Below are positions 2,233 through 26,290 of a DNA stretch of 64,000 bases, in pieces. The stretch lies in the NCBI GenBank assembly GCA_903911145.1, contig CAIWCD010000032.1, positions 2,448 through 66,447 on the forward strand. The letters run 5' to 3'. This DNA comes from an uncultured delta proteobacterium. GTDB taxonomy: Bacteria; Myxococcota; Myxococcia; Myxococcales; 40CM-4-68-19. The notes below the pieces were generated by a model, which was not told the origin of the DNA, made no database searches, and worked only from the letters and a program-made list of their open reading frames with translations. Made by a program: the position numbers and the translations under genes. Each line of letters starts with the position of its first letter. The stretch's first letter is position 1.

Positions 2233-3279
2233 ATGCCGACCATGCGCCCGAACTTTCGTACTCCCGCTCTGCTCGCCACGCTCTGCTCCGCCCTCTTCGC
2301 CGCCGCGTGCGGTGGGCCAAACGACACGACGCTCTGCTACACCAACAGCGATTGCACGGGCGGCACGGTCTGCTTCGATGGCATCTGCCAGAGCGGCAAC
2401 GGAAACGCTGGTGGCAGCGGTGGCGGCAACGCGGGAGCCAACGGCGGTGGCAGCGGTGGCGGAAGTTCATCGCCGGCCGCGCTCGGCGGGGCCTGCTCAG
2501 TGCGCTCCGACTGTGCGTCTCCTCTGAGCTGCATCCCCTCGTCGGTCGGATTCCCGGGCGGCTACTGCTCGGACTCGTGCGGCTCGAGCTCGTGCCCGAA
2601 CAACTCGGCCTGCGTCGATCTGAGCAACACCAGCCTCGGCGGCCAGGCCTGCCTTGAGAGCTGCTCGGGCAACAGCTGCCGCAGCGGCTACGTCTGCTGC
2701 GCCGGATTCGGCAACGTCTGCACGCCGACCGGTATGTGCACCAACTCGGGCGGCGGCTCTGGTGGCGGCTCGGCGGGCGGCAGCGCGGGTGGCTCTGGTG
2801 GCGGCTCGGCGGGCGGCAGCGCAGGCGGCTCTGGTGGCGGCTCAGCAGGCGGCAGCGCAGGCGGCTCTGGTGGCGGCTCGGCAGGCGGCAGCGGTGGCGG
2901 CTCGGCCGGCGGCTCTGGTGGCGGCTCGGCGGGCGGCAGCGGTGGCGGCTCGGCCGGCGGCTCTGGTGGTGGCAGCGGCGGCGGCTCGGCGGGCGGCTCT
3001 GGTGGCGGCTCGGCGGGTGGCAGCGGCGGCGGCGCGGGCGGAGGCAGCGGCGGTGGCTCGGGAACCTGCTCGCAGCACACCTGGGCCAGCGACGTCGGAA
3101 ACGCATTCTCGAACGAGTGTGGCGGCTGCCACGGATGGGCGTCGAGCCAGTCAACCGTGAAGGGGAGCATCAGCTCCATCAAGTCGAGGATCAACAGCGG
3201 GAGCATGCCGCAGGGCGGCTGGAACAACTCCTCTGACAAGACGCTCATCCTCAACTGGATCACCTGCGGCGAGCCGTAG
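2233..3279 (+). CDS. Lipoprotein: Cys-rich N-domain, long Gly/Ser/Ala linker, C-terminal CxxCH haem-c-like domain
   Basis: ORF track 348 aa. Signal/lipobox LCSALFAAAC and the CYTNSDCTGGTVCFDGIC motif. (GGSAGGSGG)n linker. C-terminal end reads NECGGCHGW...INSGSMPQGG...WITCGEP. Confidence 0.75.
   Translation: MPTMRPNFRTPALLATLCSALFAAACGGPNDTTLCYTNSDCTGGTVCFDGICQSGNGNAGGSGGGNAGANGGGSGGGSSSPAALGGACSVRSDCASPLSCIPSSVGFPGGYCSDSCGSSSCPNNSACVDLSNTSLGGQACLESCSGNSCRSGYVCCAGFGNVCTPTGMCTNSGGGSGGGSAGGSAGGSGGGSAGGSAGGSGGGSAGGSAGGSGGGSAGGSGGGSAGGSGGGSAGGSGGGSAGGSGGGSGGGSAGGSGGGSAGGSGGGAGGGSGGGSGTCSQHTWASDVGNAFSNECGGCHGWASSQSTVKGSISSIKSRINSGSMPQGGWNNSSDKTLILNWITCGEP
2747..3063. repeat. Imperfect in-frame tandem repeats encoding the (GGSAGGS/GGSGG)n linker
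   Basis: Repeated ggcggctctggtggcggctcggcgggcggcagcgc units are visible in the DNA. They generate long spurious ORFs in the other five frames. Confidence 0.9.
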
Positions 3280-3410: not shown

Positions 3411-4208
3411 TTAGTACGCGCTCCACGGCGCCTTGCAGCCGCGCTTGAGCAGCTCCTCGTTGTACGTCTTCGCGTTCGGATCGCTCTTCTCGTTCGGCGC
3501 GGCGTACCAGCGCATCACCACCGGGCCGCGGCCCGATGAGCGGGTGCAGTTGAGCGCGACGTGCGTGACTGGACACATTGACGGCGCAGCGGTCCCGATT
3601 CCAGTGCACGTGCTCTTGATTCCCTCGAAGGAGACCTGATCGCCGGGGAACTCGAAACAGCTCTGCGCGCCAGTGAGCTTCAGGTCGGGCGGGAACGGAG
3701 CGGTGCAGCCACCGTGGCTCGGGCTGCCCAGCGGCTTGGCGGCGCCCTCTTCGCCGTGCGCGGCGACTGGCGCTGCAGATGCGGCGGTCGCAGCTGCGAC
3801 GAGGGGCGTCCACGGCGCCTTGCAGCCGCGCTTGCGGACCTTCTCGTTGTAGTCCCTGGAGAACTCGCTCTCCTCCGCGGTGGCCGCGTACCAGCGCATC
3901 ACGATCAGCCCCGACTTCGACTCCTCCTGGCAGCTCTGCAGGACATGCTCGAGCGGGCAGGGCGTCGCCGCCGTCGTGCCCTCGCCGCACCCTTTCGCGA
4001 CCGCCTGCTCGGTGAACTTCGCGCCGAGGAAATCGATGCAGGTGGCGGGGCCCGCGAACGCCGGATTCACTGTGCCGTCCTCCTTCTTGATGGTCTGCGA
4101 GCAGCTGCCTTTCGTCGGGCTCGGAAGCGCGGGGGCGCTCTCAGCGCGGACGCGCGCGCTGACAAGATTGATCGCCAGAAGAGCAAGCAGCGGAAGCTTT
4201 CGGGTCAT
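3411..4208 (-). CDS. Secreted protein with two tandem ~100-aa six-Cys domains (unknown function)
   Basis: Signal peptide MTRKLPLLALLAINLVSARVRA. Both halves end in the same motif: VMRWYAATAEESEFSRDYNEKVRKRGCKAPW and VMRWYAAPNEKSDPNAKTYNEELLKRGCKAPW. Start chosen at 4208 (GGAG 7 nt upstream); 4220 is an alternative. Confidence 0.7.
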   Translation of the reverse strand: MTRKLPLLALLAINLVSARVRAESAPALPSPTKGSCSQTIKKEDGTVNPAFAGPATCIDFLGAKFTEQAVAKGCGEGTTAATPCPLEHVLQSCQEESKSGLIVMRWYAATAEESEFSRDYNEKVRKRGCKAPWTPLVAAATAASAAPVAAHGEEGAAKPLGSPSHGGCTAPFPPDLKLTGAQSCFEFPGDQVSFEGIKSTCTGIGTAAPSMCPVTHVALNCTRSSGRGPVVMRWYAAPNEKSDPNAKTYNEELLKRGCKAPWSAY

Positions 4209-4333
4209 GGGCAACTCCATCGGGAGGAAAGTCGCGACAGTAGGAGTGCATCCTGGATGGCATCAACTTTCTGAAGTCATGGCGCGAGAAGGGCACCGCG
4301 GCGAGTGGCTGAAAACCGCGATATGGAGAGCCG

Positions 4334-5566
4334 ATGAGCGAGCTGCAGGCGGAGCTGGAGCGGCGGGTGCGCGCGGGCGAGAGCGGGCTGCTCCTGCGGG
4401 AGGGGACGCTCCTGTCGTGCGTCGTGGCGGCGGATGCGGGCGAGCTGCTCTCGCGCCTCTCGGCAGCGCTCGAAGATCTGCGCACGTCGTCGTCGCGGGA
4501 GCGGGTGCGCGGTCTGGGACTCGACCGCGGCTTTCGTCTCGAGGAGTTGACCTCGGCCGCGCTGCGCCTGGGCGAGAACGACGATGCGCAGCTCGCCGAG
4601 AGCTTTCTGCGCCGCAGACTTCCGCGCGAGGCAACGCTGATTCTCTCTCGCGCAGAGGGGCCGCTGGTGCTCGGCGCGCTGCTCGAAGAGCGCATCGGCG
4701 CGGCTCCTTCGCGCACGCACTACGCGCAGGATCCCGACGGGCGACTGCGCGTCGAGGCGTTCGAATTGCACGTCACCGAGCACTGCAATCTGCGCTGCGC
4801 GAACTGCTGCAACATGTCGCCGCTCGTCGCCGAAAAGTTCCTCTCCGTCGAGGAGACGCACGCGCTCTGCGAACGCATGTCGACGGTGCTCGCGGCCGAC
4901 GTCTTCAAGATCATGGGCGGTGAGCCGCTGCTGCATCCCGACATCGCAGGCGTGCTGCGGGCTGTGCGCAGCACCTCGATCGGCGATCGCGTGCGGCTCT
5001 TCACCAACGGGCTGCTGCTGCCGTCGATGAAGGACGAGTTCTGGGAGGCACTCGATGAGCTGACCATCTCCGACTACACGAGCGCGAAGTTGAAACCGCA
5101 CGTTCTCGAGATGGCGCGCGAGCGATCGCGGCGGCACGGATTCGTGCTGAACATCAAGTCGGTGAACGAGTTCAGCCAGGTGCTCTCGCCGCGCTTCCAG
5201 GCGGATGACGCGCGGGTGCAGAAGACGTTCACCGAGTGCTGGCTGCGGCATCGCTGTCTCATCGTTCGCGGTGGCCGCTTCTTCATGTGCACGCGGGCCG
5301 CCTACGCCACGGACTTTCTCGAGCGCGCTGCGCACGAGCCGGTGCCGGGAGGAATCGCGCTCGACCGCTCCCAGGACGGGATTGCGCTCGACAGCCCTGA
5401 GCTCATCGCGCGGCTGACCGACTATCTCAATCGCACGCAGCCGCTGGCGGCTTGCCGCTTCTGCTTCGGGAGCGACGGTGGCGTCGAGCCGCACTACCAG
5501 CTCGGTCGGCTCGAGGTGCGCGACGGAATTCTCTCTCGGCAACTCAGCGAGGGCGTGCGTGGCTGA
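4334..5566 (+). CDS. Radical SAM protein with ~140-aa N-terminal extension and extra C-terminal cysteines
   Basis: CX3CX2C motif HCNLRCANCC (Cys codons at 4784, 4796, 4805). GGEPLL glycine-rich SAM motif. C-terminal cysteines in ECWLRHRC, FFMC and ACRFCFG. GGAGAG RBS 4 nt upstream of the ATG. Confidence 0.85.
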   Translation: MSELQAELERRVRAGESGLLLREGTLLSCVVAADAGELLSRLSAALEDLRTSSSRERVRGLGLDRGFRLEELTSAALRLGENDDAQLAESFLRRRLPREATLILSRAEGPLVLGALLEERIGAAPSRTHYAQDPDGRLRVEAFELHVTEHCNLRCANCCNMSPLVAEKFLSVEETHALCERMSTVLAADVFKIMGGEPLLHPDIAGVLRAVRSTSIGDRVRLFTNGLLLPSMKDEFWEALDELTISDYTSAKLKPHVLEMARERSRRHGFVLNIKSVNEFSQVLSPRFQADDARVQKTFTECWLRHRCLIVRGGRFFMCTRAAYATDFLERAAHEPVPGGIALDRSQDGIALDSPELIARLTDYLNRTQPLAACRFCFGSDGGVEPHYQLGRLEVRDGILSRQLSEGVRG

Positions 5567-6635
5567 AGCGGATCGCGCGCCGCACGTGGTGGCTTCGCGC
5601 GCGTCGCTACGTGATTGGCAAGGCGTGCAGCGGGCCTACCTGCGCGTGCGCGATGGGGCGCAGTCGTTGTCGCTCAAGCCGCTCGTGGAACATCCGCTGC
5701 GCTTCGATCGAGATGGTGTTCGCGCGGCCTTTGGTCTCGCAAATCGGCCACCAGAGCGGCCGAGAGCACCGCGAAGTTTCGACGGCGCGCGCGCGATCGA
5801 CGTGGAGAGCATCGAGTCGTTCGAGCGCACGCCGCTCGCGGGGATCGTGCAGCAGCCGCGCGCGCCGCTCACGCAGACGTCGCGCGATTTTCGCGAGCTG
5901 TTCCTCGACGAGACGGCGCGACTGCATCGGACCAGCGCGGCTGCAGCGCTCGCGCTCGGTGGAGGTCTCGATGCCGCGCTTGTGCTCGCCGCGATTCGTG
6001 AATGCGCGCTTCCGCTGCCGGCGCTGCTGACACTCGAGACAGGCTTCGCCAACTACGACGAAGTCGCGCAGGCCGAGGCGATCGCGCGTCACTTCTCGGC
6101 GCCGCTGATCGTCGTGCGGACCGCGCCTGGCGCGCTCGCGGCGCTGCTTCCTGAAGCGGTCGGGCACGCAGAGGCGCCGCTCTACAACCTCCATCCTGTC
6201 GGTCGCCTCGCGCTTGCGCAGGCAGCCCGCGCGCGCGGATTCGATGCGCTCTTCACGGGGGATGGCGCAGACGCCGCCTGCTGTGGCGCGCCCGATCTCG
6301 ACTACGTCCCGCTGGTCGCGGCGCTCACGACCGGCGCAGGCCTGCCGCTGCTCTCGCCGTTCTTTGAAGCAGAGACGATCGCGGCTGCGCGCGGTGACGA
6401 CAAGCAGCAGCTGCGATCGCTCGCGACCGCTCTGGGCCTGCCTCGCACGCTGATCGATGCGCCAAAGCGCGCGCGCCTGATGCCCGCGATCGATCTCTCG
6501 ATGCACCTCGACCTCGCGACTCTCGCGCTGCTCGCGCGCAATCTCGACGAGCCGTTGCAGCTCGACACCGACCGCGCGTGTGTCTCGTGGATCACGCTCT
6601 CGCTGCTCGCGCGCCAGCTCGAGGGAGCGCGCTGA
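5559..6635 (+). CDS. Asparagine-synthetase C-terminal (synthetase) domain-only protein with degenerate PP-loop
   Basis: LALGGGLDAALVLAA sits where the SGGxDS PP-loop would be. TGDGADAACCG resembles the AsnB GEGADELFGGY motif. There is no N-terminal Ntn glutaminase domain. The GTG at 5559 (8-nt overlap with the rSAM gene) is a guess; the ORF track frame opens at 5478. Confidence 0.65.
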   Translation: MAEADRAPHVVASRASLRDWQGVQRAYLRVRDGAQSLSLKPLVEHPLRFDRDGVRAAFGLANRPPERPRAPRSFDGARAIDVESIESFERTPLAGIVQQPRAPLTQTSRDFRELFLDETARLHRTSAAAALALGGGLDAALVLAAIRECALPLPALLTLETGFANYDEVAQAEAIARHFSAPLIVVRTAPGALAALLPEAVGHAEAPLYNLHPVGRLALAQAARARGFDALFTGDGADAACCGAPDLDYVPLVAALTTGAGLPLLSPFFEAETIAAARGDDKQQLRSLATALGLPRTLIDAPKRARLMPAIDLSMHLDLATLALLARNLDEPLQLDTDRACVSWITLSLLARQLEGAR

Positions 6636-8369
6636 ATGTGCGGGATCGCTGGCATCGTCCGCTTCGACCAACCCGCGAGCGCATTCGCGCAGCGCCTCGC
6701 GCCGATGCGTGCGCGGCTTCGTCACCGCGGGCCGGATGGCGAAGGCGAGCTCGTCACCTCGCACGCTGCGCTCGCGCACACGCGGCTCTCCATGCTCGAT
6801 GCCGCAGGCGGTGCGCAGCCGATGCAGAGCGCCGATGGCCGCTACACGCTCGTCTACAACGGTGAGCTCTACAACGACGCGCAGCTCCGGCAACGGCTTG
6901 CGCAACCCTTCCGCACGCGCAGCGATGCCGAGACGTTGCTCGCTGCGTGGTCTGCGTGGGGCGAGGAGTCGCTCCTCGCTCTCGACGGGATGTTCGCCTT
7001 CTTCATCTGGGACGAGCAGCAGCGCGTTGGCTTTGCCGCCCGCGATCGCCTCGGCGTCAAGCCGTTCGCCTATCTCCACGAGCGGGAAGAGTTCCGCTTT
7101 GCTTCCGAGGCGCGCGCGCTGCTCACCGATCGAACGGCGCACGCGGACGACGAAGCGATCATCGAAAATCTCGTCGCGCCCGCCTTCAGCGGAGTCTCGC
7201 GCTCGCCTTTTCGCGACGTGCGCTATCTCGCTCCAGGCGCGGTCTTGCGCATCGATGCGCGCGGCGTACGGACGCGTCGCTACTGGCGCTGGCGCGTGCA
7301 GGAGAGCGCCGCGACGGTGACGCCCGAGGAGATTCGCGAGACGTTGCAGAAGAGCGTGCACGACTCTCTGCACGCCGATGTTCCGCTCGGACTCTTCTTG
7401 AGTGGCGGAGTCGACTCGACCGCTCTGGGCGCGGCCGCGCGCGATTCGGGTACAGCGCTCGATGCCTTCACAGTGACCTACGAGGATCAGGCGAGCTGGC
7501 ACGACTCGGTGCTGGTGCTCGACGACGACACGCCGCACGCCCGCGTCGCCGCGACCGCGCTGGGCTTGAGATTTCACGAAGTGCCGGTGGCGAGAGCCGC
7601 GCTCGCAGAGGAGCTTGTCGCGCTCGCGAAAGCGAACGACGCGCTGCCCGCGTGGGAGCAGGAGTTGTCGCAGCGGGCGCTTTCCCGCGCGGCCTCGCGA
7701 CTCGTCAAAGGCGTGCTCGTCGGAGACGCCGCCGACGAGACGCACTACGGCTACCACTTCCTCCTCGACGAGCTCGCGACCTCACGGCCCGCGGCGATCT
7801 TCGCGCGCCTCGGCAGCGTGCCGATCGTCCGCACGATCGATCGAGATCCAGTCGCGCGCCTCGACGAGGAGTACCGCACGCTGGTCGCGGAGTCGGGCTG
7901 CACGTTCGATACGCAGGAGGCGCGCACGTTGGCGACGACGCAGTTGATCGTCGAGCGCTGGCTGCCGCGGCTGCTTCACAACGGCGATATCCACACCATG
8001 CAGTTCGGGCTCGAGGCGCGCGTGCCGTTTGCGAGCAATGCGCTGCTCGCCCTTGCTGGGCGCGTTCCTCCGCGAATCGGACTTCGCGGCGGCGTCGAGA
8101 AGGCGCTGCTGCGCGAGTCGCTGCGCGGGCTCATCCCCGAGTCGATCCGCACGCGGCGCAAGTCGGCGCTGCCCAAGGATCAAGGCGCGCAGGCGATCTA
8201 CCAGCGCGAGCTTCTGCGTCTCGAGTTGCATCCGCTCGTGCATCGGCTCGTCGATCTCGCCGCGATGAAGCCGCTGTTGCACGCGACCACTCTGCGCGAG
8301 AGCGAGCGGGCGCAGCTGTTTCGTGTTCTCTCTCTCCACCATTGGGCGATCGCGAACGAGGTCGTTTGA
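6636..8369 (+). CDS. Asparagine synthase (glutamine-hydrolysing)-like amidotransferase
   Basis: MCGIAGIV Ntn-Cys N-terminus and intact PP-loop LFLSGGVDSTALG; 577 aa. The ATG directly abuts the upstream TGA. Confidence 0.9.
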   Translation: MCGIAGIVRFDQPASAFAQRLAPMRARLRHRGPDGEGELVTSHAALAHTRLSMLDAAGGAQPMQSADGRYTLVYNGELYNDAQLRQRLAQPFRTRSDAETLLAAWSAWGEESLLALDGMFAFFIWDEQQRVGFAARDRLGVKPFAYLHEREEFRFASEARALLTDRTAHADDEAIIENLVAPAFSGVSRSPFRDVRYLAPGAVLRIDARGVRTRRYWRWRVQESAATVTPEEIRETLQKSVHDSLHADVPLGLFLSGGVDSTALGAAARDSGTALDAFTVTYEDQASWHDSVLVLDDDTPHARVAATALGLRFHEVPVARAALAEELVALAKANDALPAWEQELSQRALSRAASRLVKGVLVGDAADETHYGYHFLLDELATSRPAAIFARLGSVPIVRTIDRDPVARLDEEYRTLVAESGCTFDTQEARTLATTQLIVERWLPRLLHNGDIHTMQFGLEARVPFASNALLALAGRVPPRIGLRGGVEKALLRESLRGLIPESIRTRRKSALPKDQGAQAIYQRELLRLELHPLVHRLVDLAAMKPLLHATTLRESERAQLFRVLSLHHWAIANEVV

Positions 8370-9548
8370 GTGAAACGCAAACGCGCATTGGTGATCACGC
8401 TGCCTGAGAAGGGCCACTACTACCCGCTGCTCGGGCCGGCGGCCGCGCTCACGCGCCTGGGCTTCGAGGTGATCTTCTCTGCGCCAGCGGACATTCGTGC
8501 GGAGCTGCAGAGCGCGGGCGTGGCTCGCATCGTGCTGCCCGAGGGCGCGCAGCCGTTGTCGCAGGAGTTGCGCGGAGCCGCGCTGGACAAGACTTTGCGC
8601 GATCCCGACAAGCTGCGGAATTGGATTCGCGAACTGCTCGTCGAAGGCACTCCCGCGATGCTCGAGCCGATGCGCGCGGTCCTGCGCGAGGTGCGTCCCG
8701 ACGTCGTCGCGATCGACACGATGTTCGATGCGGGCGCACTCGCGGCAGAGCTGGAAGGAGTCCCGTGGGTCGGCTTCGCGACGTCGCTCAACCCGGTTCT
8801 GCCGGCAGATCTCGACAGCGAACTTCTGCGCACGACGCGCGCGCTCGAGCCGCGTCGGCGTGAGCAGTTTTCGCAGCACGGATTCTCTGCGGCGTTTCGT
8901 TCTGCGGACATTCTCTCGCCGCGCGGCACCGCGGTATTCAGCACCGAGGCGCTCGTCGGCGAGCCTCCTCACAGTGTCTCCCTGGTCGGGCCATCGGTGC
9001 GCTCGTCCGCTCAGGGAGAGGTCGATCTCGATTTCGCGGAAGGCCGCCCGCTCGTCTACGCATCGTTCGGAAGCCAGGCCTGGCACCAACCGCAGCGCTA
9101 CGAACTGCTCATCGATGCGGCCGTTCAACTCGACGTCGCGCTGCTGATTGCGATGGGCGATCTCGCAGGTGAGTTCACGCAGCGCACGCTCCCTGCCCGT
9201 GTCCGCTGTATCCCGTTCGCCGATCAAGTCGCGGTGCTTGCGCACGCCCGCGTCGCCGTCACGCACGGCGGCGCGAACTCGGTGATGGAGGCGCTCACGC
9301 ACGGAGTGCCGATGCTGATCTCGCCGCTCTGCAACGACCAGCCGCACAATCTCCACTTCGTCGCGCGCGCCGGCGCTGGGTGCGGACTTGCGCTCGACAG
9401 CGCCCCCGTCGTGGACACGGTGTCGTGCCTGCGTGAGCTTCTCGCCGACGGGCCGGAACGCCAGGCCGCCGCGCGAATCGCGCACTCCTATCGAGAGCGA
9501 TCAGGCAACGAAGGAGCCGCGCTTCTGGCTGCGCGCGCTGCACGATGA
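8370..9548 (+). CDS. GT1-family (MGT/UDP-glycosyltransferase-like) glycosyltransferase
   Basis: GT-B C-terminal donor motif THGGANSVMEALTHGVPMLISPLCNDQPHN. N-terminal LPEKGHYYPLL. GTG start immediately after the upstream TGA. Confidence 0.85.
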   Translation: MKRKRALVITLPEKGHYYPLLGPAAALTRLGFEVIFSAPADIRAELQSAGVARIVLPEGAQPLSQELRGAALDKTLRDPDKLRNWIRELLVEGTPAMLEPMRAVLREVRPDVVAIDTMFDAGALAAELEGVPWVGFATSLNPVLPADLDSELLRTTRALEPRRREQFSQHGFSAAFRSADILSPRGTAVFSTEALVGEPPHSVSLVGPSVRSSAQGEVDLDFAEGRPLVYASFGSQAWHQPQRYELLIDAAVQLDVALLIAMGDLAGEFTQRTLPARVRCIPFADQVAVLAHARVAVTHGGANSVMEALTHGVPMLISPLCNDQPHNLHFVARAGAGCGLALDSAPVVDTVSCLRELLADGPERQAAARIAHSYRERSGNEGAALLAARAAR

Positions 9549-9579
9549 GCGCACGAATCTGCCCGAGGGCGGGTCGTGC

Positions 9580-10527
9580 ATGACGACGACGATCCCCCTG
9601 ACGATGGTCGCGCGCAACGAAGCGCGGGCGATCGGACCCTGCCTCGATTCGCTGCTCGCCTCCGCACGTGCAGCGCAGGCGCGCCTGCCGATCGTCTTCG
9701 ATCTCCTCGTCGTGCTCGATGACTGCACTGACGAGACGCGGGCGATCGCCCAGACGCGCAACGTGCGTGTGCTCGAGAGCCACGGCGGCAAGGTCGAGGG
9801 CCAGCGGCGCGGCTTTCGCGAGGGTGCGCCATTTCAGATATTCGCAGATGCGGATATTCTCCTCGACGAATATGCGCTCTTCGGGATCTGTGACGCGATG
9901 CTGCGCGATCCGCAGCTGCTCATCGCCTTCCCGCGCCTGGCTCCATTGCCACCGCGCGCACGCACGCCGCTCGCCTGGGCACTCCATCTCTACAATCTGC
10001 GCCGCGGATTCTCTTCAGGGCGCAGCTGGTTCAACGGCCGCCTCTTCGCGCTGCGCGGCCTCGCTCTTCCCTCGCGCGACGAACTCTCCGCGCGCGCGCG
10101 CGACCTGCCGCCGAGTCGCTTCCTCGATCTGCGCGCCGATCTGCTCGCGGAGGACATCCTGCTCAGTCGGCTCGCGCTCATTCGCGGAGGCGAAAATGCG
10201 CTCCGCGAATCGCAAGATGGCCTCGTGCGATATCGCGCGCCCGAGACGCTGCGCGGGATGCATCGCTACCACCGGCGCATGCGGCGCGAGCTTGAGCGCA
10301 CCGACGCGCTCTTCCCCGAGACGCGCGAGGTGCACGCTCGCTTCGGCCATCGCAGTTGCGATCTGCTCGCCGCCGCGCCGCGCTCAGAACGACTCGCCTA
10401 TCGACTCTTTCAAGGCGCGCTCGCGCTCTGCCGCGTGGCGTTTGCATTCGAGCGCATCTGCGTCGAGCGGGGCCTGCGACCGGGCTTTGATCCTTGGCCG
10501 GCGATCGAGGAGACGAAGGCGCTGTGA
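9580..10527 (+). CDS. GT2-family (GT-A fold) glycosyltransferase
   Basis: MTTTIPLTMVARNEARAIGPCLDSLL, VVLDDCTDET, GGKVEGQ and a DAD (DxD) motif. ATG at 9580 lies inside the longer ORF-track frame that opens at 9388. Confidence 0.8.
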   Translation: MTTTIPLTMVARNEARAIGPCLDSLLASARAAQARLPIVFDLLVVLDDCTDETRAIAQTRNVRVLESHGGKVEGQRRGFREGAPFQIFADADILLDEYALFGICDAMLRDPQLLIAFPRLAPLPPRARTPLAWALHLYNLRRGFSSGRSWFNGRLFALRGLALPSRDELSARARDLPPSRFLDLRADLLAEDILLSRLALIRGGENALRESQDGLVRYRAPETLRGMHRYHRRMRRELERTDALFPETREVHARFGHRSCDLLAAAPRSERLAYRLFQGALALCRVAFAFERICVERGLRPGFDPWPAIEETKAL

Positions 10528-11264
10528 AACGACTGCGACCAATCCACGTGCGTCCGCTCGAGATCTGGAATGCGCCAGTGGCGGGTCGGCCGCTCTGCGA
10601 CTGGCAGCTGCGCGAAGAGTTTCCCGAAGCGCTCGCGGAGTTGGTGCAGAGGCTGCGTCACGAACATCGCTTCACGCGCGTTCATCTCCTCGGCGGCGGG
10701 GCGCTGCGGCCCGGTCTTGCGTCGCTGCTCGGTGCCACGGTGTCGACCGATCCGACCTTCGCGGCGGCCCGCGCAGGGAGCGCGCAGGGCATCGCCTGTG
10801 CCGACGTCGGGCAGACCGCGATCAAGCTGGTGGCGGGCGAGAGCACGTTTACTCGCGCACGCGATCTCTCGCGGGCGCCGCTGATCAACGCGCCGACGCG
10901 CACGCCCAATGCCGACGCGACAATCTTGAACGCGCGGGAGTCGACGCTGAATTTTCTCGCCGAGTCACTCGCGCCGCTCGCTCCGCTCTTGTCCTCCTCG
11001 GCGATGCGGCCCGACGCGTGTCTTCTCCTCGCGCTTCCGTGCGAACTCGACGACGCGTGCAATCTTTCGAGCTGCACGTATGCGTGGAACCCGGGCGATC
11101 TCGCAGCGCTGCTGCGCGCGGCAGGGCTTGCGCACGAGCGCGTGCTGGTGCTCAACGACGCGGAGTTGGCTGCCCTCGCGGTCGGCAGCGATCCTCAAAC
11201 GCAGACGGAGAGAACGCTCGTGCTCACTCTCGGATTCGGCGTTGGAGCCGCGCTCTGGCGATGA
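10524..11264 (+). CDS. Hypothetical protein with weak ROK/ASKHA sugar-kinase-like motifs
   Basis: ADVGQTAIK (compare DxGGT), VLNDAELAAL (compare NDANAAALGE), LTLGFGVGAAL (compare GTGIGGG). Only 246 aa, and it stops where ROK proteins continue. GTGA overlap with the GT2 stop. Confidence 0.45.
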   Translation: MKRLRPIHVRPLEIWNAPVAGRPLCDWQLREEFPEALAELVQRLRHEHRFTRVHLLGGGALRPGLASLLGATVSTDPTFAAARAGSAQGIACADVGQTAIKLVAGESTFTRARDLSRAPLINAPTRTPNADATILNARESTLNFLAESLAPLAPLLSSSAMRPDACLLLALPCELDDACNLSSCTYAWNPGDLAALLRAAGLAHERVLVLNDAELAALAVGSDPQTQTERTLVLTLGFGVGAALWR

Positions 11265-12088
11265 CCACGCTCTATCTCTCGCCGCATCTCGACGATGTCG
11301 CGCTCTCCTGCGCAGGGGGGCTGTTGCACGCGCGCGCTCGAGGCGAGCGCGTGATTGTCGCGACGGTGTTTACCGAGGGCCGCGGCCAGGCTGCGCGGCG
11401 ACGAGAAGACATCGCAGCGCTGCGTTCAATCGGGGCTGAGCCGCTTCATCTCGGCTTTCTCGACGCGCCCGATCGCCTCCATCTCAAGCCTGGCTTTGCT
11501 TCGCTCGTGCTCGAGCCTGAGGTCGAACTCGCGCTGGTATCGACGATCTCGCGGCAACTCCGCGCGCTGCTGGCAAACGTGCGCCCGGCGCGGATCTGCT
11601 TCCCTCTGGGTGTGGGTGGACATATCGATCACCGCACGCTCTTTGAATGCGCCGCACGCGTTGCTGCGACGGCAGAGGCGAATGGAGTCGCGCTTCGGTT
11701 CTACGAGGAGCGCCCATATTCGTTCGTACCCGCGCTGCGCGTGCTGCGCCTGCTCGAGCTGCGCGGTGGTCGGCGCCGCGCGTCGCCGGATTCGATTGAT
11801 GCTGAATTGGGCCGGATACCACTGCTCAATTCATTTCCTGGTCGCGCGGCGCGCGCGGATTGCCTCGCGCAGCTCGCGCAACGACTCTCGACCGCGCACC
11901 CGCGCCGGATGCGGCTGTGCGCGCGCATGCAGTCGTTTCAACCGACGGTTCTCGAAGCGGCCGCGCAACTGATCGCGCGATATCAGACCCAGCGAACCGC
12001 GCTCTTCGGCGACCGATCGATTCAATCGCTCTATGCCGAGCATTCGCTCGATCGCAGAGGCCGATTTATCGAGCGCACATTCACTTAA
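11261..12088 (+). CDS. PIG-L/LmbE-family N-acetylglucosaminyl deacetylase
   Basis: MTTLYLSPHLDDVALSCAG (PHxDD metal motif) and GGHIDH. ATGA overlap with the upstream gene. Confidence 0.85.
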   Translation: MTTLYLSPHLDDVALSCAGGLLHARARGERVIVATVFTEGRGQAARRREDIAALRSIGAEPLHLGFLDAPDRLHLKPGFASLVLEPEVELALVSTISRQLRALLANVRPARICFPLGVGGHIDHRTLFECAARVAATAEANGVALRFYEERPYSFVPALRVLRLLELRGGRRRASPDSIDAELGRIPLLNSFPGRAARADCLAQLAQRLSTAHPRRMRLCARMQSFQPTVLEAAAQLIARYQTQRTALFGDRSIQSLYAEHSLDRRGRFIERTFT

Positions 12089-14370
12089 TAACTGAGTGCT
12101 CCCTGCGCGCGCACGGCCGTCATGGCCGCGAGATTCACCACGTCCTGCACGCTCGCGCCCTGCTGGAGAACATTGACCGGCTTGTTCATTCCCATCAGCA
12201 CCGGGCCGATCACTTCTGCACCGCCGAGACGCCAGAGCAGCTTGTAACCAATATTGCCGCTGTTTAGATCGGGGAAGACGAGGACGTTGGCGTCGCCGGT
12301 CAATCGCGCAAAGGGGAACTCCTGCGCGCGCACGCTTTCAATCACGGCAGCATCGACCTGCATCTCGCCTTCAATCTCAAGGTCGGGCCGGCGGGCGCGC
12401 ACGATTTCAACCGCGCGCCGGACCTTGCCGGGAGAGCCTCCGCGATCGGTGCCGAAGTTGGAGTAGGAGAGGCAAGCGATGCGCGGGGTCAATTCAAAGG
12501 CCTGTGCCAACTCTGCCGTTGATATCGCGATATCAGCCAGCTCTTCCGAGGTGGGATCGGCATTCACCGTACAATCGGCGAGCAGCTTGATGCCATCCCG
12601 GAAGGCGAGGATATACGTGCCGCTCGCGCGCTTATCAGGCTGCGTGCGGATGATTTCCAACGCGGGCCGGATAGCTTCCGGATAGGTGCGGGTTAATCCC
12701 GTGACGACGCCGTCGACCGAGCCGTCGGCGAGCATCAATGCCGCGAAGGTATTGCGCTGGCGGACGCGATAGAGCGCCTCGCTATAGGAGACGCCAGAGC
12801 GCTGCCTCAGTTGATAGAACTGCTGTGCGTAATCCGCGAAGCGCTCGGTATCGAGCGGATCGACGATCTCGAGATCGGCAATCGCCGTTAAGCGGGCCTC
12901 CTGCGCGAGGGCGAGAATCTCCTTGCGTCGTCCGAGCAGCACCGGCTTGCAGATCCGCTCGTCCATCAAGGCCTGCGCCGCGCGGAGAATGCGCGGGTGG
13001 TTTCCCTCGGGGAAGCAGATGCGCGTCTGCTGCTTGCGCGCGCGCGATACCACCACGCGCATGACTTCATACGTGCGCCCCTGCCGGCGTCGCAGTTCGT
13101 CGAGGTAGGTCTCGTGATCGAGCTTGATGCGCGCGACGCCGCCGTCCATCGCGGCCTGCGCCACGGCCGGCGCGACCGCAAGCAGCACGCGCGGATCGAA
13201 GGGTTTGGGAATGATGTAATCGCGGCCGAAGGAGAAGTGCTGGCCGCCATAGGCGGAGCTGACGCTTTCGGGAACGTCTTCGCGTGCGAGCTGTGCAAGC
13301 GCACGCGAGGCCGCGAGCTTCATCTCCTCGGTGATCGCGCGGGCGCGAACATCGAGCGCGCCGCGGAAGATTCCGGGAAAGCCGAGAACGTTATTTACTT
13401 GATTGGGATAATCGCTGCGCCCCGTGGCGACGATCGCGTCGGGCCGCACCGCGTGAATCTCCTCGGGCGCGATCTCCGGAACGGGATTTGCGAGCGCGAA
13501 GACGATCGGATCCTTACCCATTGAAACGATATGTTCGGCGCGGATTGCTCCGGCGACCGAGAGACCGACCAGCACATCGGCGCCGCGCACGACGTCCGCA
13601 AGTCCGCGCGGGCCGCCACTTTGCGCGAACGCGCCCTTCCATTCATCCATCTCTTCCGGGCGCCCGCGATAGACGAGGCCATGCTTATCGCAGAGCGATA
13701 TCTGCGCGCGCGGAACGCCGAGACGGACATATTGCTCCGCGCACGCGACCGCCGCGGCTCCTGCGCCGACGAACACCACGCGCACCTGCTCGGCGGTCTT
13801 GCCGACGACGTGCAGCGCATTCACCAGAGCAGCGCCGGTAATGATCGCCGTGCCGTGCTGGTCGTCGTGAAAGACCGGGATATTCATCTCGGCGCGCAGC
13901 CGCCGTTCAATCACGAAGCATTCAGGGCTCTTGATATCCTCGAGATTGATTCCCCCGAAGGTCGGCTCGAGCACGCGCACGGCATTGCAGAACGTGTCGA
14001 TATCCTTGGTATCAACCTCGAGATCGAAGACGTCGATATCAGCGAACTTCTTGAAGAGGACCCCCTTGCCCTCCATGACGGGCTTGCCCGCGAGCGCGCC
14101 GATATCACCGAGGCCGAGCACCGCCGTGCCGTTCGAGATCACGCCGACGAGATTTCCCCGCGCCGTGTACTTGAACGACAGCTCCGGATCGGCTGCGATG
14201 GCGAGGCACGGCTCGGCGACACCGGGCGAATAGGCCAGCGACAGCTCGCGCGCAGTGCCGACCGGCTTGGTGGGCACGACTTCGATCTTTCCCGGCCGAC
14301 CGTGCGCGTGGAAATCGAGCGCCTCCTCGCGCGAGATATGTCCGCCCTTGGTATCGAAGGTTGTCGCCAT
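12085..14370 (-). CDS. maeB: NADP-dependent malic enzyme (malic enzyme plus phosphate-acetyltransferase-like domain)
   Basis: [36 protein letters not shown]..., [12 protein letters not shown], and a long PTA-like C-terminal half. Start placed at the ATG at 14370 (GGAG upstream). The 60 Arg-rich residues upstream in the ORF track are antisense to the neighbouring gene's Lys tail. Confidence 0.92.
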
Positions 14371-15003: not shown

Positions 15004-16860
15004 ATGCACGCTCATCGAATCGTTGCAGTCACTCCGTTCGAACTTCCGGATCTCCGGCTCGCTGCAGCGTTGGGGCGCGCTGGAGCTCTCTCTGTGCTCG
15101 ATCTCGGGCGCGATCGCGAGGCGGCGAAGCTCGCGCTGGCGCAGCTGGCGAAGGAGCCATCGCGCGGCGAGTTCGGTGTGCGGCTCGTCGCCTCCGTGCT
15201 GATCGAACCCGCGGAACTTCCTGCGCGCATCGGGACGGTGATCGTCGCTTCCGCAGAGCAGGTCTCGCGCTTTCGTCCGCGCGCAGTTTTCGTTGAGTGC
15301 TCGACTGTTGCTGCGGCCCGAGCGGCGCAGGCTGCAGGCGCAGACGCGATCATCGCAGTCGGCAGCGAGAGCGCGGGACCGTTTTCCGAGGAGACGGCGT
15401 ACGTCCTCCTGCAGCACCTCGTCGCGGCGCAGATCACGCTCCCGATCTATCTGCGCGGCGGCATCGGCCTGCACACAGCAGCAGCGGCGATCGCGGGTGG
15501 CGCTGCCGGTGTGGTGCTCGATTCGCAGCTCGCGCTCCTCGCGGAGTCGTCGGCCTCGCCAGCGATCCGCCAGCAGATCGGCGCGATGGATGGCAGCGAG
15601 ACGGTGATCGTCGAGGGGCGTCGTCGTCTTGTGCGCCCGAGCGCGCCGGGGCAGCCTGCGCCGGCTGAAGCAGAGGCGCTCGTCGTCGGACAGGACGCAT
15701 CCTTCGCGCGCGCACTCGCCGAGCGTTTTCGCACCGCCGCGAATCTCGTCTCGGGGATCGATCAGGCGATCGACGCGCACCTGCGCCAGTCCTGCGCGCT
15801 CAATCCCCTTGCGCCCGAATCGCGCTGGGCCAAGCAGCACAATCTTCGCTACCCGATCGCCCAGGGTCCGATGACGCGCGTCTCCGATCGCGCCTCGTTC
15901 GCGCTCGCTGTCGCCGAGGGTGGAGCCCTGCCTTTTCTCGCGCTCTCGCTGATGCGCGCGAAGGAGGCGCGGCCGCTGCTCGAGGAGACGCGCGCTCGCC
16001 TCGGCTCGCTGGCGTGGGGCGTGGGCGTGCTCGGATTTGTTCCCGCCGAGCTGCGCGATGAGCAGCTCGCACTGCTCCGGGAGTTCAAGCCGCCCGTCGT
16101 GCTGATCGCTGGCGGCCGCCCGGCACAGGCGCGTCCGCTCGAGGACGCAGGCATCCAGACCTATCTGCACGTGCCGTCGCCGGGCCTGCTCGATCTCTTC
16201 GTCAAGGAGGGCGCGCGCCGCTTTGTGCTCGAGGGGCGCGAGTGCGGCGGCCACGTCGGTCCCCGCTCGAGCTTCGTTCTCTGGGAGAGCGCGATCGAGC
16301 GACTCGCTGCGGATCCGCACGCGGGCGAGATGAGCATTCTCTTCGCCGGTGGAATCCACGACGCGCGCTCGACCGCCATGGTGGCCGCTGCGAGCGCTCC
16401 TCTCGCTGGACGCGGCGCGCGCATCGGCGTCTTGATGGGCACCTCGTATCTCTTCACGCACGAGGCTGTTTCCAGCGGCGCGATCCTCCCCGGCTTCCAA
16501 TCCGAGGCGATCGCCTGCGAAGAGACGGTGCTCCTCGACACAGCTCCCGGCCACTCCACGCGCTGTGCCGAGACCGACTACGTGCGCGCCTTTCGCGCCG
16601 AGCAGACGCGCCTTGCGGCCGAGGGAAAAGATTCGCGCGAGGCCTGGGAAGCGCTCGAGAAGCTCAACCTCGGTCGGCTGCGCATCGCCGCGAAGGGGAT
16701 CGTGCGCGACGGCGAGAAGCTCGAGCTTGTCGGCGAGAGCGAGCAGCGCAAGTCGGGGATGTACATGATGGGGCAGGTCGCGGCGCTGCGTGAGCGCACG
16801 CTTTCGATTCGCGAACTGCACGCCGAAGTCAGCGAAGGCGGCGCGCGCATGCTGCAGGCT
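15004..16860 (+). other. PKS1 domain: two NMO/PfaD-like TIM-barrel enoyl-reductase segments
   Basis: First segment: IVAVTPF...YLRGGIGLHTAAAAIAGGAAGVVLDSQ. Second segment: YPIAQGPMTRVSD...LEGRECGGHVGP...FAGGIHDARS. Confidence 0.7.
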
Positions 16861-25985: not shown

Positions 25986-26290
25986 ACGAGGCGCAGGTCG
26001 ACGGCGAGGGGGCCGTGCTTGCGAAAGTTGCGAAGTTGCTCCGCGAGGTCATCGGCGAGGAGTGGGCGACGGACGTCGAGATCACGCGCGAGACTTCGTT
26101 CAACGAAGACCTCGAGCTCGAGAGCATCGAATTCGTCGCGCTTGCCGAGAAGCTGCAGAACGAATTCGGCGCGCGCGTGGACTTCGCGGGCTGGCTCGCA
26201 AACCAGGAGCTCGAGCAGATCATCCGATTGCGCGTAGGCGAAGTCGTGGATTTCATCACCCGATGCCTCTCGTCGAGCGACAAGGCTTAA
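25982..26290 (+). CDS. Discrete acyl carrier protein
   Basis: FNEDLELESIEFVALAEKL (phosphopantetheine Ser context); ~102 aa. The ATG at 25982 overlaps the PKS2 stop (ATGA); 25970 is an alternative start. Confidence 0.8.
   Translation: MNEAQVDGEGAVLAKVAKLLREVIGEEWATDVEITRETSFNEDLELESIEFVALAEKLQNEFGARVDFAGWLANQELEQIIRLRVGEVVDFITRCLSSSDKA

Follow-up and report, generated by a model that had tools for sequence, protein, structure and literature searches.

The spectinomycin twitch dehydrogenase SpeY, a radical SAM enzyme, closes a dioxane bridge by oxidising the 2'-carbinol of a sugar. In the pathways to mycothiol (MshA/B/C), bacillithiol (BshA/B/C), hopanoid cyclitol ethers (HpnI/K/J) and pactamycin (PtmJ/G/C), GlcNAc is attached by a glycosyltransferase (GT) and its amine unmasked by a deacetylase, after which remodelling falls to a ligase or to a radical SAM enzyme. 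Moenomycin, a membrane-anchored phosphoglycolipid whose pathway includes prenyl and many GT genes, employs two AsnB-family enzymes, MoeF5 and MoeH5, within one glycoside pathway to convert carboxylates carried by sugars into carboxamides or amides.

Here we analyze a 64-kb stretch of DNA (the window) with seven tightly packed, co-directional genes at 4334-12088. They encode, in order, a radical SAM protein, a short AsnB-like protein without glutaminase domain, a full AsnB, a GT1 and a GT2 glycosyltransferase, a kinase-like (ASKHA/ROK-like) protein and a PIG-L deacetylase. The cassette has the overall scheme of the mycothiol, bacillithiol, hopanoid and pactamycin pathways, but the GT families differ, inositol, malate, hopanoid and ACP genes are absent from it, and the family-specific NCBIfam models score far below their cut-offs (BshB1, 22 versus 182 bits; HpnH, 31 versus 225; HpnB, a weak match on the cassette GT2, 16 versus 379). 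Two AsnB-family enzymes are shared with moenomycin biosynthesis as commonly described, whereas the prenyl and many GT genes of that pathway are missing. As in the cassette, a GT1 and a PIG-L-family deacetylase occur together in teicoplanin (GtfA/B and Orf2*) and A40926 (Dbv21) biosynthesis, where the deacetylase substrate is a small-molecule GlcNAc-glycoside; unlike these pathways, the cassette has neither a subsequent acyltransferase nor an NRPS aglycone, and its PIG-L is accessory. In line with the preliminary description, which did not recognise the gene combination, we found no described pathway that matches it in the literature, nor any report on the cassette's product. Every reaction assigned below is assigned by homology.

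Operon structure and conservation

The radical SAM gene stops at 5566, beyond the GTG start of the next gene at 5559, an 8-nt overlap read directly from the sequence. The two AsnB genes meet at TGA-ATG (6633-6638), the full AsnB and GT1 genes at TGA-GTG (8367-8372), the GT2 and ASKHA genes at GTGA (10524-10527), and the ASKHA and PIG-L genes at ATGA (11261-11264). GT1 and GT2 are separated by a 31-nt gap (9549-9579), a junction absent from the list in the preliminary description. Apart from that omission, its claim of seven co-directional genes with abutting or overlapping junctions was verified in the sequence, and independent gene calling for the source contig returned the same seven genes. 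The gene identities that it proposed also hold, with Pfam in agreement for six, NCBIfam also for the full AsnB, and ROK/ASKHA motifs for the kinase-like gene; in orthologue alignments, all seven families keep their conserved catalytic motifs. We conclude that the seven genes are one operon of identified and translationally coupled genes.

Upstream lies a divergent gene (3411-4208, minus strand). The 125-nt intergenic region between it and the operon (4209-4333) is presumed, from its position, to be the promoter region; it contains no sigma-70 consensus and no Rfam match. At the downstream end, the PIG-L stop codon overlaps that of a convergent gene. Neither inside the operon nor adjoining it is there a transporter, a regulator or a conserved small ORF, which bears out the earlier view of a cassette devoid of transporter, regulator and precursor-peptide genes. 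Transmembrane segments and signal peptides are absent from all seven proteins, and membrane-helix hydrophobicity in 19-residue windows was reached only by two short internal stretches, in the AsnBs and GT1, within soluble domains.

A neighbourhood check of the kind proposed earlier showed that the set is conserved: 14 other Myxococcota-type genomes, Nannocystis exedens DSM 71 among them, carry all seven genes in unchanged order at 30-70% protein identity, and the cassette is also kept on a 39%-GC contig of a relative, at 24-41% identity. The flanks differ at every locus compared, and no flanking gene is conserved. With gene order recurring in 14 genomes and flanks never, the arrangement is far beyond chance. 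Of 15 metagenome loci collected around the ASKHA gene, 14 contain GT1, seven GT2 and five PIG-L. Four members make up the core of the cassette: GT1, its most constant partner, the ASKHA protein, the radical SAM enzyme and the short AsnB-like protein. Conservation is lowest for GT2 and PIG-L. PIG-L is missing from L016, L018, L026, L028, L029 and L086, and the full AsnB from the six-gene variants L007, L084 and L085.

A SpeY-like radical SAM core carrying a chorismatase relic

The radical SAM core and its twitch-type auxiliary-cluster domain (4739-5566, plus strand, as for all seven genes) match Pfam Radical_SAM at 40.5 bits, and the CNLRCANC motif (C151, C155, C158) is invariant among orthologues. 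A phmmer comparison with PDB 7wzv gave E 2.2e-40. The AF2 model (mean pLDDT 95.8) matched 7wzv, 7wzx and 7x0b, 'Twitch Radical SAM Dehydrogenase SpeY', in Foldseek with a target-normalised TM of 0.81 at 32-34% identity, and cysteines 302, 319, 374 and 377 line up with those of SpeY. Structurally, this region is closely related to SpeY (7WZV/7WZX/7X0B), sharing the radical SAM core, the twitch domain, the CX3CX2C motif and the four aligned auxiliary cysteines. By analogy, the enzyme would be a sugar or cyclitol carbinol dehydrogenase or epimerase. SpeY-like genes in Streptomyces loci have a GT2 gene immediately downstream and lie amid aminotransferase and NDP-sugar dehydratase genes. Because the cassette has none of the inositol, aminotransferase and methyltransferase genes of aminocyclitol pathways, the substrate must differ from that of SpeY.

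In contrast to SpeY, the window protein has an extra N-terminal domain (residues 1-135; 4334-4738). This domain is RidA/YjgF-like and is the relic of a chorismatase, corresponding to its C-terminal third. Its residues 36-133 align with residues 222-324 of chorismatase-radical SAM fusions (hhalign probability 97.3%, E 2e-11), the window ORF matches a four-sequence chorismatase HMM with E 1.5e-9, and scores against this HMM form a graded series. For this domain, the AF2 model resembles the RidA-like structures 3gtz and 3k12 (TM 0.64-0.67). In distant versions of the cassette the chorismatase is complete, either fused to the radical SAM protein (L033-L035) or encoded separately as the first gene (L087). 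These chorismatases contain Pfam FkbO_Hyg5-like_N, and the L035 protein matches Hyg5 (5AG3) with E 2e-34 and FkbO (4BPS) with E 2e-30. We found no description of a chorismatase-radical SAM fusion in the searchable literature.

The catalytic-Glu motif VE[IV]EG, in which the intact chorismatases of L035 and L087 end, is reduced to its second Glu in L034 and L033 and replaced by LVLGAL in the window. Compared with FkbO, Hyg5 and XanB2, the window protein retains about 100 of about 340 residues, without the Glu motif, and would not be expected to act as a chorismatase. R50, R68, E70 and Y130 are nonetheless invariant, and R94, R95 and R120 near-invariant, which suggests that the relic retains a ligand-binding role. 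No chorismatase gene is encoded within the 64-kb window, and many cassette variants with a core-only radical SAM protein have no chorismatase nearby. The relic hints at an aglycone that was ancestrally chorismate-derived; in the window, the aglycone may have stopped deriving from chorismate.

AsnB-like, glycosyl-transferring, kinase-like and deacetylase proteins

The short AsnB-like protein (5559-6635, 358 aa) consists of a PP-loop synthetase domain only, matching the first 137 of 354 positions of Pfam Asn_synthase (66 bits), with no GATase domain. Its PP-loop is non-canonical, GGGLDA where SGGxDS is expected, and the protein might thus be non-catalytic; the degenerate loop is conserved as ALxGGxDxA among 27 orthologues, as are TGDGAD and PLYNLHPV. 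All homologues found are unnamed, hypothetical or generically annotated 'asparagine synthase(-related)', and several lie on cassette contigs; one of the homologues is Hoch_5688 of Haliangium ochraceum. The protein is specific to the cassette. The full-length, glutamine-hydrolysing AsnB-type amidotransferase (6636-8369, 577 aa) begins MCGIAG, with Cys2 as nucleophile, and has a canonical PP-loop, LSGGVDST. It matches Pfam GATase_7 and Asn_synthase (170 bits) and NCBIfam TIGR01536, asparagine synthase (342.7 versus a cut-off of 267.1).

GT1 (8370-9548) is a GT-B glycosyltransferase of the small-molecule, natural-product type. It matches Pfam UDPGT, EryCIII-like_C and Glyco_tran_28_C, its nearest solved structures are CalG1, YjiC, Kcn28 and OleD, and it conserves the GH dyad (GHYYP) and the HGGANS...NDQ donor motif. 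The GT2-like GT-A enzyme (9580-10527, 315 aa) matches Pfam Glycos_transf_2 at the borderline (24.6 versus 23.3), with an invariant DxD motif (D90-A91-D92) and an invariant D51. Its profile aligns with solved GT2 enzymes over the nucleotide-binding half only, and the C-terminal half is family-specific.

The kinase-like protein (10524-11264, 246 aa) has no Pfam match, ROK included, yet carries motifs of the ROK/ASKHA kind (DVGQTxxK, NDAELAA, TLGFGVGGA). D94xGQTxxK101 (phosphate-1), N211-D212-A213 (the ROK NDA) and T235xGxGxG241 (phosphate-2, at the very C-terminus) are invariant, as is GG57-58 near the N-terminus. Profile residues 200-262 align with ROK residues 100-158, and profile residues 30-109 with MreB residues 246-326. 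The best Foldseek matches of the AF2 model (mean pLDDT 93.4) were EutJ, the putative kinase 3lm2 and a ROK hexokinase, all weak (TM 0.35-0.42). ROK kinases such as the polyphosphate/ATP glucomannokinase 1WOQ share the phosphate-1, NDA (catalytic Asp) and phosphate-2 motifs, whereas the cassette protein has neither the zinc/CxCGxxGCxE nor the ExGH sugar motif, and its elements follow a permuted order that opens with the adenosine-type GG segment and places phosphate-2 at the extreme C-terminus. It apparently has a circularly permuted ASKHA/ROK fold. Its family has 434 representatives, nearly all of 230-290 aa, and in one lineage (P0338/L087) the GT2 and ASKHA genes are fused.

The last gene (11261-12088) encodes a 275-aa PIG-L/LmbE-family deacetylase (Pfam 50.1 versus a cut-off of 28.2) with its metal-site motifs, SPHLDD and GHxDHR, conserved in 18 orthologues. 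Its nearest solved relatives are the GlcNAc-pseudoaglycone deacetylases Dbv21 of A40926 and Orf2* of teicoplanin (E 4.5e-12 to 5.5e-9). That a GT and PIG-L follow the usual logic of glucosamine installation, as proposed earlier, is reasonable given these relatives and the natural-product relatives of GT1. However, because no members of the cassette are less conserved than GT2 and PIG-L, installing a free glucosamine is an accessory branch and not the core. GlcNAc as the transferred sugar is suggested only by the presence of PIG-L.

Candidate functions of the cassette

We favour, with modest confidence, a self-contained soluble cytoplasmic pathway that combines a small carboxylated aglycone with amides and sugars, the aglycone being ancestrally a chorismate-derived ring compound. 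The preliminary description instead pointed to a head group: a GT would add GlcNAc, PIG-L would deacetylate it and an AsnB-like enzyme would acylate the amine. In the reading weighed here, this head group would end up on the lipid or polyketide of a neighbouring PKS operon. All these genes are present and look active by their motifs, the deacetylases that PIG-L resembles, those of teicoplanin and A40926, act ahead of N-acylation, and the PKS operon begins 3 kb downstream. Yet two opposite-strand genes separate that operon from the cassette, it has its own GT1 paralogue, PIG-L and GT2 show the lowest conservation, PIG-L-less cassettes are common, and about 30 other loci have no PKS homologue within 10 kb of the cassette. 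The PKS operon is missing from every other cassette locus, the head-group claim fails when read as a PKS link, and we regard this explanation as unlikely. It is quite unlikely that the cassette acts on a glycan of the cell envelope (LPS, EPS or capsule), for instance through uronic acid amidation and sugar epimerisation or deacetylation. The conserved set lacks a flippase, polymerase, polyprenyl-phosphate transferase or nucleotide-sugar synthesis gene, the proteins lack membrane segments and signal peptides, GT1 is of the small-molecule-acceptor type, and a chorismatase association is not a glycan trait. In favour of this explanation are a Lachnospiraceae surface-glycopolymer locus, where distant members of the radical SAM clade occur with AsnB, GT2, GT4, LicD and a TupA-like ATP-grasp protein, and the second-best NCBIfam match of the full AsnB, the XrtA/PEP-CTERM EPS amidotransferase, although it lies far below cut-off (264 versus 817 bits).

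A mycothiol- or bacillithiol-like thiol, or another GlcN-based housekeeping cofactor or osmolyte, would make the short AsnB-like protein an amino acid-to-sugar amine ligase. A GT, a PIG-L and an ATP-dependent ligase do parallel MshA/B/C and BshA/B/C, and broad conservation in Polyangia without transporter, resistance or regulator genes fits an intracellular physiological metabolite. This explanation is nevertheless decidedly unlikely: MshA and BshA are GT4 enzymes whereas the cassette has GT1 and GT2, the BshB1 model is far from reached, the cassette lacks a ligase of the MshC or BshC type, many variants do without PIG-L, and the sulfur donor, the radical SAM enzyme and the chorismatase are left unexplained. 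Radical SAM, AsnB-like (lasso-cyclase type) and GT enzymes are all known in RiPP pathways, and sub-threshold NCBIfam matches to lasso cyclase (178 versus 525 bits) and to sactipeptide maturases were found. However, a radical SAM maturase, an AsnB-like cyclase and GTs acting on a peptide encoded elsewhere would be a highly improbable arrangement, given that the cassette has no RRE/PqqD domain, peptidase or exporter, that 33 loci have no conserved small ORF within 2 kb of either cassette end, and that the radical SAM protein is specifically SpeY-like (E 2e-40), resembling peptide maturases at the level of the core only.

In the soluble aglycone pathway that we favour, the intact chorismatase would supply the aglycone in L087 and L033-L035. 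In the window, the aglycone would be supplied from elsewhere, because the catalytic motif is gone from the relic, whose role is probably limited to binding a carboxylate ligand. The short AsnB-like protein would adenylate a carboxylate and couple it to an amine or ammonia, the full AsnB, where present, would provide a further carboxamide from glutamine, and GT1 would place a sugar on one of the aglycone's hydroxyls. Next, the twitch radical SAM enzyme would abstract hydrogen at a secondary carbinol of the sugar or a carbocycle, giving a ketone or an epimer. In accessory branches, the GT2-ASKHA pair would attach a second sugar, probably a HexNAc, and phosphorylate it, and PIG-L would remove the N-acetyl group to expose an amine.

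Operon structure and distribution of the cassette

The cassette spans 7.8 kb of the window (4334-12088), whose G+C content is 64-69%. Its seven plus-strand genes encode a radical SAM enzyme (rSAM; 4334-5566, 410 aa), a short AsnB-like protein (5559-6635, 358 aa), a full AsnB (6636-8369, 577 aa), a GT1 (8370-9548, 392 aa), a GT2 (9580-10527, 315 aa), an ASKHA-like protein (10524-11264, 246 aa) and a PIG-L protein (11261-12088, 275 aa). Independent gene calls came from a 336-kb metagenome scaffold that matches the window (ENA ERZ18667900 BUCK21-1 scaffold_2). Direct reading of the sequence bore out the close junctions of the preliminary description: an 8-nt overlap (5559-5566), TGA-ATG (6633-6638), TGA-GTG (8367-8372), GTGA (10524) and ATGA (11261); the sole intergenic gap, of 31 nt, separates GT1 from GT2. 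The gene labels proposed there also agreed with Pfam and NCBIfam (Radical_SAM, AsnB-types, GT1 and PIG-L, with a borderline Pfam assignment for GT2), except for the 'kinase-like' gene discussed below.

A divergent gene bounds the operon upstream. Downstream lies a convergent malic-enzyme/phosphotransacetylase (PTA) fusion gene (12085-14370, minus strand), whose stop codon overlaps the PIG-L stop TAA (12086-12088). There is no terminator between these two genes, a promoter and terminator scan gave no signal exceeding shuffled expectation, and an Rfam search for a riboswitch or leader RNA returned no match. An 806-aa ORF that runs in the PIG-L frame back across the GT2 and ASKHA-like genes (9668-12088, plus strand) was rejected as a high-GC shadow ORF, because orthologue conservation backs three separate genes, each in its own frame. 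Two upstream genes, at 2242-3279 (plus strand) and 3411-4208 (minus strand), have lipoprotein- or signal-peptide-like N-termini; neither has a Pfam or NCBIfam match or is kept beside the cassette elsewhere.

The window rSAM has hundreds of homologues, the closest of which (56-74% identity) come from Myxococcales, Polyangiaceae and other Myxococcota. One genome per species was retained, giving 80 loci, which were then searched by tblastn and HMM. The gene set first described from the window alone recurs as a unit, with all seven genes in identical order in 14 other genomes. Carriers include Nannocystis exedens DSM 71 (L025), N. bainbridge (L023/L083), a Nannocystis MAG, Haliangiales, several Polyangiaceae and Polyangia MAGs, and one MAG labelled Planctomycetota; beyond the myxobacteria, carriers occur sporadically in other phyla. 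The locus tag Hoch_5688 (Haliangium ochraceum) belongs to one of the homologues of the short AsnB-like protein. Culturable strains with the cassette are thus N. exedens DSM 71 and N. bainbridge, and also H. ochraceum DSM 14365 on the evidence of this locus tag.

Apart from the cassette genes themselves, no flanking gene recurred in an all-against-all clustering of the ORFs of 35 loci, and upstream neighbours vary from locus to locus. In N. bainbridge (L083, 6627-9864), genes for a heme oxygenase and a bacteriophytochrome histidine kinase immediately precede the cassette in the same orientation, a hint of control by light in this species; a general bacteriophytochrome linkage was rejected, as the gene is not conserved beside the cassette elsewhere. 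At other loci the cassette is preceded by chemoreceptors (L084), by a NUDIX/NrtR-like regulator directly before the rSAM gene (L085, 9242-9991), or by CsoS1D-like, BMC-H and EutN microcompartment shell genes with an aldehyde dehydrogenase, which abut the cassette start on the same strand (L086, 6744-9983). At L035, a NadR-like protein (cytidylyltransferase-like plus AAA_28; 4018-5208) adjoins AsnB, and a MacB/HlyD exporter lies upstream. NAD-related neighbours are thereby present at two unrelated cassette loci, L085 and L035.

The radical SAM enzyme and its N-terminal domain

The rSAM protein matches PF04055 (40.5 vs cut-off 29.5), and its SAM-cluster motif C151-x3-C155-x2-C158 (CX3CX2C) is invariant across 54 homologues. 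Its core (residues 122-392) matches PDB 7wzv with an E value of 2e-40, and its AF2 model (pLDDT 95.8) aligns by Foldseek with a TM of 0.81 to 7wzv, 7wzx and 7x0b, which are titled 'Twitch Radical SAM Dehydrogenase SpeY'. Consistent with this, the C-terminal auxiliary [4Fe-4S] cluster cysteines of SpeY have counterparts in cysteines 302, 319, 374 and 377, which are invariant in homologues. Taken together, sequence and model place the window protein as a predicted twitch-subclass, SpeY-like member of the radical SAM superfamily. SpeY oxidizes a sugar secondary alcohol in spectinomycin biosynthesis; to our knowledge, it is the single characterized member of its clade. Streptomyces members of the clade sit in aminocyclitol-like clusters with a GT2 gene directly after them, while Lachnospiraceae members lie in a surface-glycan locus with AsnB, and both contexts fit a clade acting on sugars or cyclitols. 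The window GT2 was considered as an orthologue of the Streptomyces GT2 and rejected, since the two have no significant similarity.

One Lachnospiraceae MAG locus (L046, 4862-19947) is a surface-glycopolymer locus with two tandem SpeY-clade genes, together with LicD, a glycyl-radical enzyme, GT2, AsnB, GT4, an FkbM methyltransferase and a TupA-like ATP-grasp enzyme; it suggests that modifying glycans is a widespread role of the clade in gut Firmicutes. Among the cassette loci, L024, L026, L029 and L030 carry a second, tandem SpeY-like rSAM that has no N-terminal domain. An anti-phage function was rejected: the PADLOC match, pVip, covers only the generic rSAM core (its first ~100 residues, 144-252), and the other six proteins have no match.

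The N-terminal region of the window enzyme is related to chorismatases. In four orthologues (at L033, L034 and L035, and P0112), the rSAM carries the Pfam FkbO/Hyg5-like chorismatase N domain, and the N-terminal 336 residues of the L035 protein match Hyg5 (5AG3, E 2e-34) and FkbO (4BPS, E 2e-30) over almost their full length. In the window protein this domain is 135 aa, compared with ~340 residues for a full chorismatase fold (FkbO_Hyg5-like_N), and has no Pfam match. Profile-profile comparison aligned only its residues 36-133, to residues 222-324 of the fused chorismatase domain, the last third of the fold (probability 97.3%, E 2e-11), and a small chorismatase HMM matched the window rSAM ORF (E 1.5e-9) with graded scores across cassette rSAMs. 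In the AF2 model, the domain resembles RidA/YjgF proteins.

The glutamate of the C-terminal VE[IV]EG motif of chorismatases is catalytic. This motif is intact in L035 (VEVEG) and L087 (VEIE), L034 and L033 retain just one Glu of it, and LVLGAL replaces it in the window protein. The window domain nonetheless keeps several Arg, Glu and Tyr residues that are invariant or nearly so among homologues. From these alignments, we infer that residues 1-135 are a catalytically dead chorismatase relic, which may still bind a carboxylate ligand. No stand-alone chorismatase was found within the window.

A different arrangement is present at L087, a 39%-GC metagenome contig, where the genes run in the order intact stand-alone chorismatase, core-only rSAM, short AsnB-like, AsnB, GT1, P0338 and PIG-L. 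Each of the seven window proteins has a homologue on this contig, at 24-41% identity and with the gene order preserved, and P0338 is a single 549-aa protein in which GT2 is fused to the ASKHA-like protein. The gene set of L087 indicates that the chorismatase belonged ancestrally to this pathway, and the P0338 fusion indicates that GT2 and the ASKHA-like protein act together. At L033 and L035, an extra rSAM-SPASM protein precedes the chorismatase fusion. At L034 (a Verrucomicrobia MAG), a 772-aa protein with isochorismatase, TCAD9 and dual-specificity phosphatase domains is encoded just downstream of the fusion (11697-14015).

Remaining proteins and the constant part of the cassette

The full AsnB begins with MCGIAG, which contains the N-terminal Cys nucleophile, carries the PP-loop LSGGVDST and scores 342.7 against TIGR01536 (cut-off 267.1). 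It is thus predicted to be a canonical class II glutamine amidotransferase/asparagine synthetase B. The short AsnB-like protein has no GATase match and scores 40 vs 267 for TIGR01536; its PP-loop, GGGLDA, is conserved as GGxDxA without the flanking serines, while TGDGAD and other synthetase-domain motifs are kept. It is a relative of bona fide AsnB rather than a member. All of the matches recovered for it are uncharacterized or generic asparagine-synthase-like proteins, and several are encoded on cassette contigs.

GT1 belongs to the GT1/UDPGT superfamily (UDPGT 58.8 vs 19.5; UDPGT/EryCIII type), with the GH dyad and donor motif in place, and its nearest solved structures are CalG1, YjiC, Kcn28 and OleD; assignment to the macrolide-type MGT subfamily was rejected (TIGR01426 113 vs cut-off 260). 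PIG-L matches PF02585 (50.1 vs 28.2), and its metal-binding SPHLDD and GHIDHR motifs are conserved in orthologues. Its nearest solved relatives are the teicoplanin and A40926 pseudoaglycone deacetylases.

For the ASKHA-like protein, labelled 'kinase-like', only weak ROK/glucokinase matches were recovered and no Pfam match. Its AF2 model (pLDDT 93.4) retrieved ASKHA proteins as the top Foldseek matches (EutJ, 3lm2 and ROK hexokinase; probability 0.97-0.99), with a TM of only 0.35-0.42. The invariant motifs correspond to a phosphate-1 DxGQTxxK, a ROK NDA catalytic region and, right at the C-terminal end, a phosphate-2 TLGFGVGGA; near the N-terminus lies an adenosine-type LLGGGA segment that resembles MreB residues 246-326. 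This motif order suggests a circularly permuted minimal ASKHA fold, and such a permutation would explain the weak global TM. Identification as a ROK kinase was rejected, given the permuted order, the missing Pfam match and the presence of PF00480 on only 1 of 120 homologues. Among 1.84 billion cluster representatives, 434 belong to this family, and almost all of these are 230-290 aa long.

To separate core from accessory genes, components were counted in metagenome loci sampled around the ASKHA gene, limited to the 15 with enough flanking sequence. GT1 was present at 14 of the 15, the short AsnB-like protein at 12, rSAM at 11, AsnB at 9, GT2 at 7 and PIG-L at 5. Six-gene variants without AsnB (L007, L084 and L085), variants without PIG-L (L016, L018, L026, L028, L029 and L086) and minimal variants comprising rSAM, short AsnB-like, GT1 and ASKHA genes (L106, L111, L113-115 and L127) were also found. 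These counts and variants indicate that the constant chemistry is carboxylate activation/amidation, GT1 glycosylation, radical oxidation/epimerization and probably phosphorylation. The GT2 and PIG-L branch, earlier taken to install a free hexosamine, is indeed in the window, but at the frequencies above it is an add-on rather than core.

A candidate amidated-glycoside pathway

The cassette is an orphan biosynthetic gene set in which several domain architectures are unusual. It can be likened to small-molecule glycoside tailoring, in that a SpeY-type rSAM is combined with a glycopeptide-type GT1/PIG-L pair. From the protein identities, conservation, fusions and motif integrity observed here, we propose an order of reactions and substrates. 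A chorismate-derived ring carboxylate, or in the window an aglycone supplied in trans, would be amidated by the AsnB-type enzymes. GT1 would glycosylate it, the SpeY-like rSAM would oxidize or epimerize a secondary carbinol, GT2 with the ASKHA-like protein would extend and phosphorylate, and PIG-L would deacetylate; the product may then stay in the cell or leave by a generic exporter. We lean, by a modest degree, towards this general amidated-glycoside model, and hold a chorismate origin of the window's own product with less confidence.

Several other products were weighed. A PKS head group was suggested by the neighbouring PKS operon, a tie that the preliminary description had considered. When the window PKS-operon proteins were searched by tblastn against the ~80 loci, no PKS was found within 10 kb of any other cassette, and their sole matches near other cassettes were GT1 paralogues. 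The adjacency in the window is incidental, and the head-group reading is disfavoured. A mycothiol-type thiol or cofactor would also employ a glycosyltransferase with a PIG-L protein; it is disfavoured, and the bacillithiol/mycothiol pathway was rejected on a BshB1 score of 22.3 vs 182.5, on glycosyltransferases that are GT1 and GT2, not GT4, and on an operon without a Cys ligase. The hopanoid side-chain pathway (HpnH/I/J/K) was likewise rejected (HpnH 31.2 vs 225; HpnB 16 vs 379), and no hopanoid genes are conserved near the cassette.

An envelope glycan, as in the surface-glycan loci of the Lachnospiraceae relatives, is disfavoured as well; none of the seven cassette proteins has a membrane-spanning segment. 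The same holds for a RiPP, which the rSAM gene might bring to mind: small-ORF clustering at both cassette ends gave only low-complexity noise, with no conserved precursor peptide. Because flanks are not conserved and RNA families, end ORFs and membrane segments are lacking, we conclude that the cassette is a self-contained soluble module. As it is also small and present in culturable strains, the amidated-glycoside model is testable by deletion, heterologous expression and metabolomics.

A bolder form of this model, which we consider unlikely, is a new class of chorismate-derived glycosides. Here a chorismatase product (a hydroxybenzoate or vicinal-diol cyclohexadiene carboxylate) would be amidated, glycosylated, oxidized by the SpeY-like rSAM, possibly to a spectinomycin-like bridged ring, and phosphorylated, giving a conserved intracellular Polyangia metabolite (a cofactor, redox buffer, protectant or signal) and not a secreted antibiotic.

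If the general amidated-glycoside model is right, an entire lineage of myxobacteria from soil and sea would have a common undescribed metabolite, and the reactions known for the SpeY clade, which is widespread in glycan loci of gut Firmicutes, would be extended. The pathway would unite enzyme types not known in combination before: a chorismatase-derived domain on a sugar-type twitch rSAM, a relative of AsnB that lacks the glutaminase and is specific to the cassette, and an apparently permuted, minimal ASKHA protein fusible to a glycosyltransferase. A literature search with most subscription journals outside its reach, in which absence is not proof, found no paper on the gene set, the chorismatase-rSAM fusion or the Haliangium locus.

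The separate PKS operon occupies 15004-31181 (plus strand). It encodes an ER(NMO)-KS-AT-ACP-KR protein (2226 aa) and then a KS-AT-...-PPTase protein (1493 aa), along with two alpha/beta hydrolases, an LCM-type methyltransferase, a hexapeptide-repeat protein and a GT1 paralogue (27812-28984) that shares about 30% identity with the cassette GT1s. Downstream of it, a 443-aa Hsp70/MreB-like ASKHA protein (32384-33715, minus strand) adjoins a 403-aa ORF without assigned function. The PKS operon itself resembles an independent pathway for a glycosylated polyketide or lipid.
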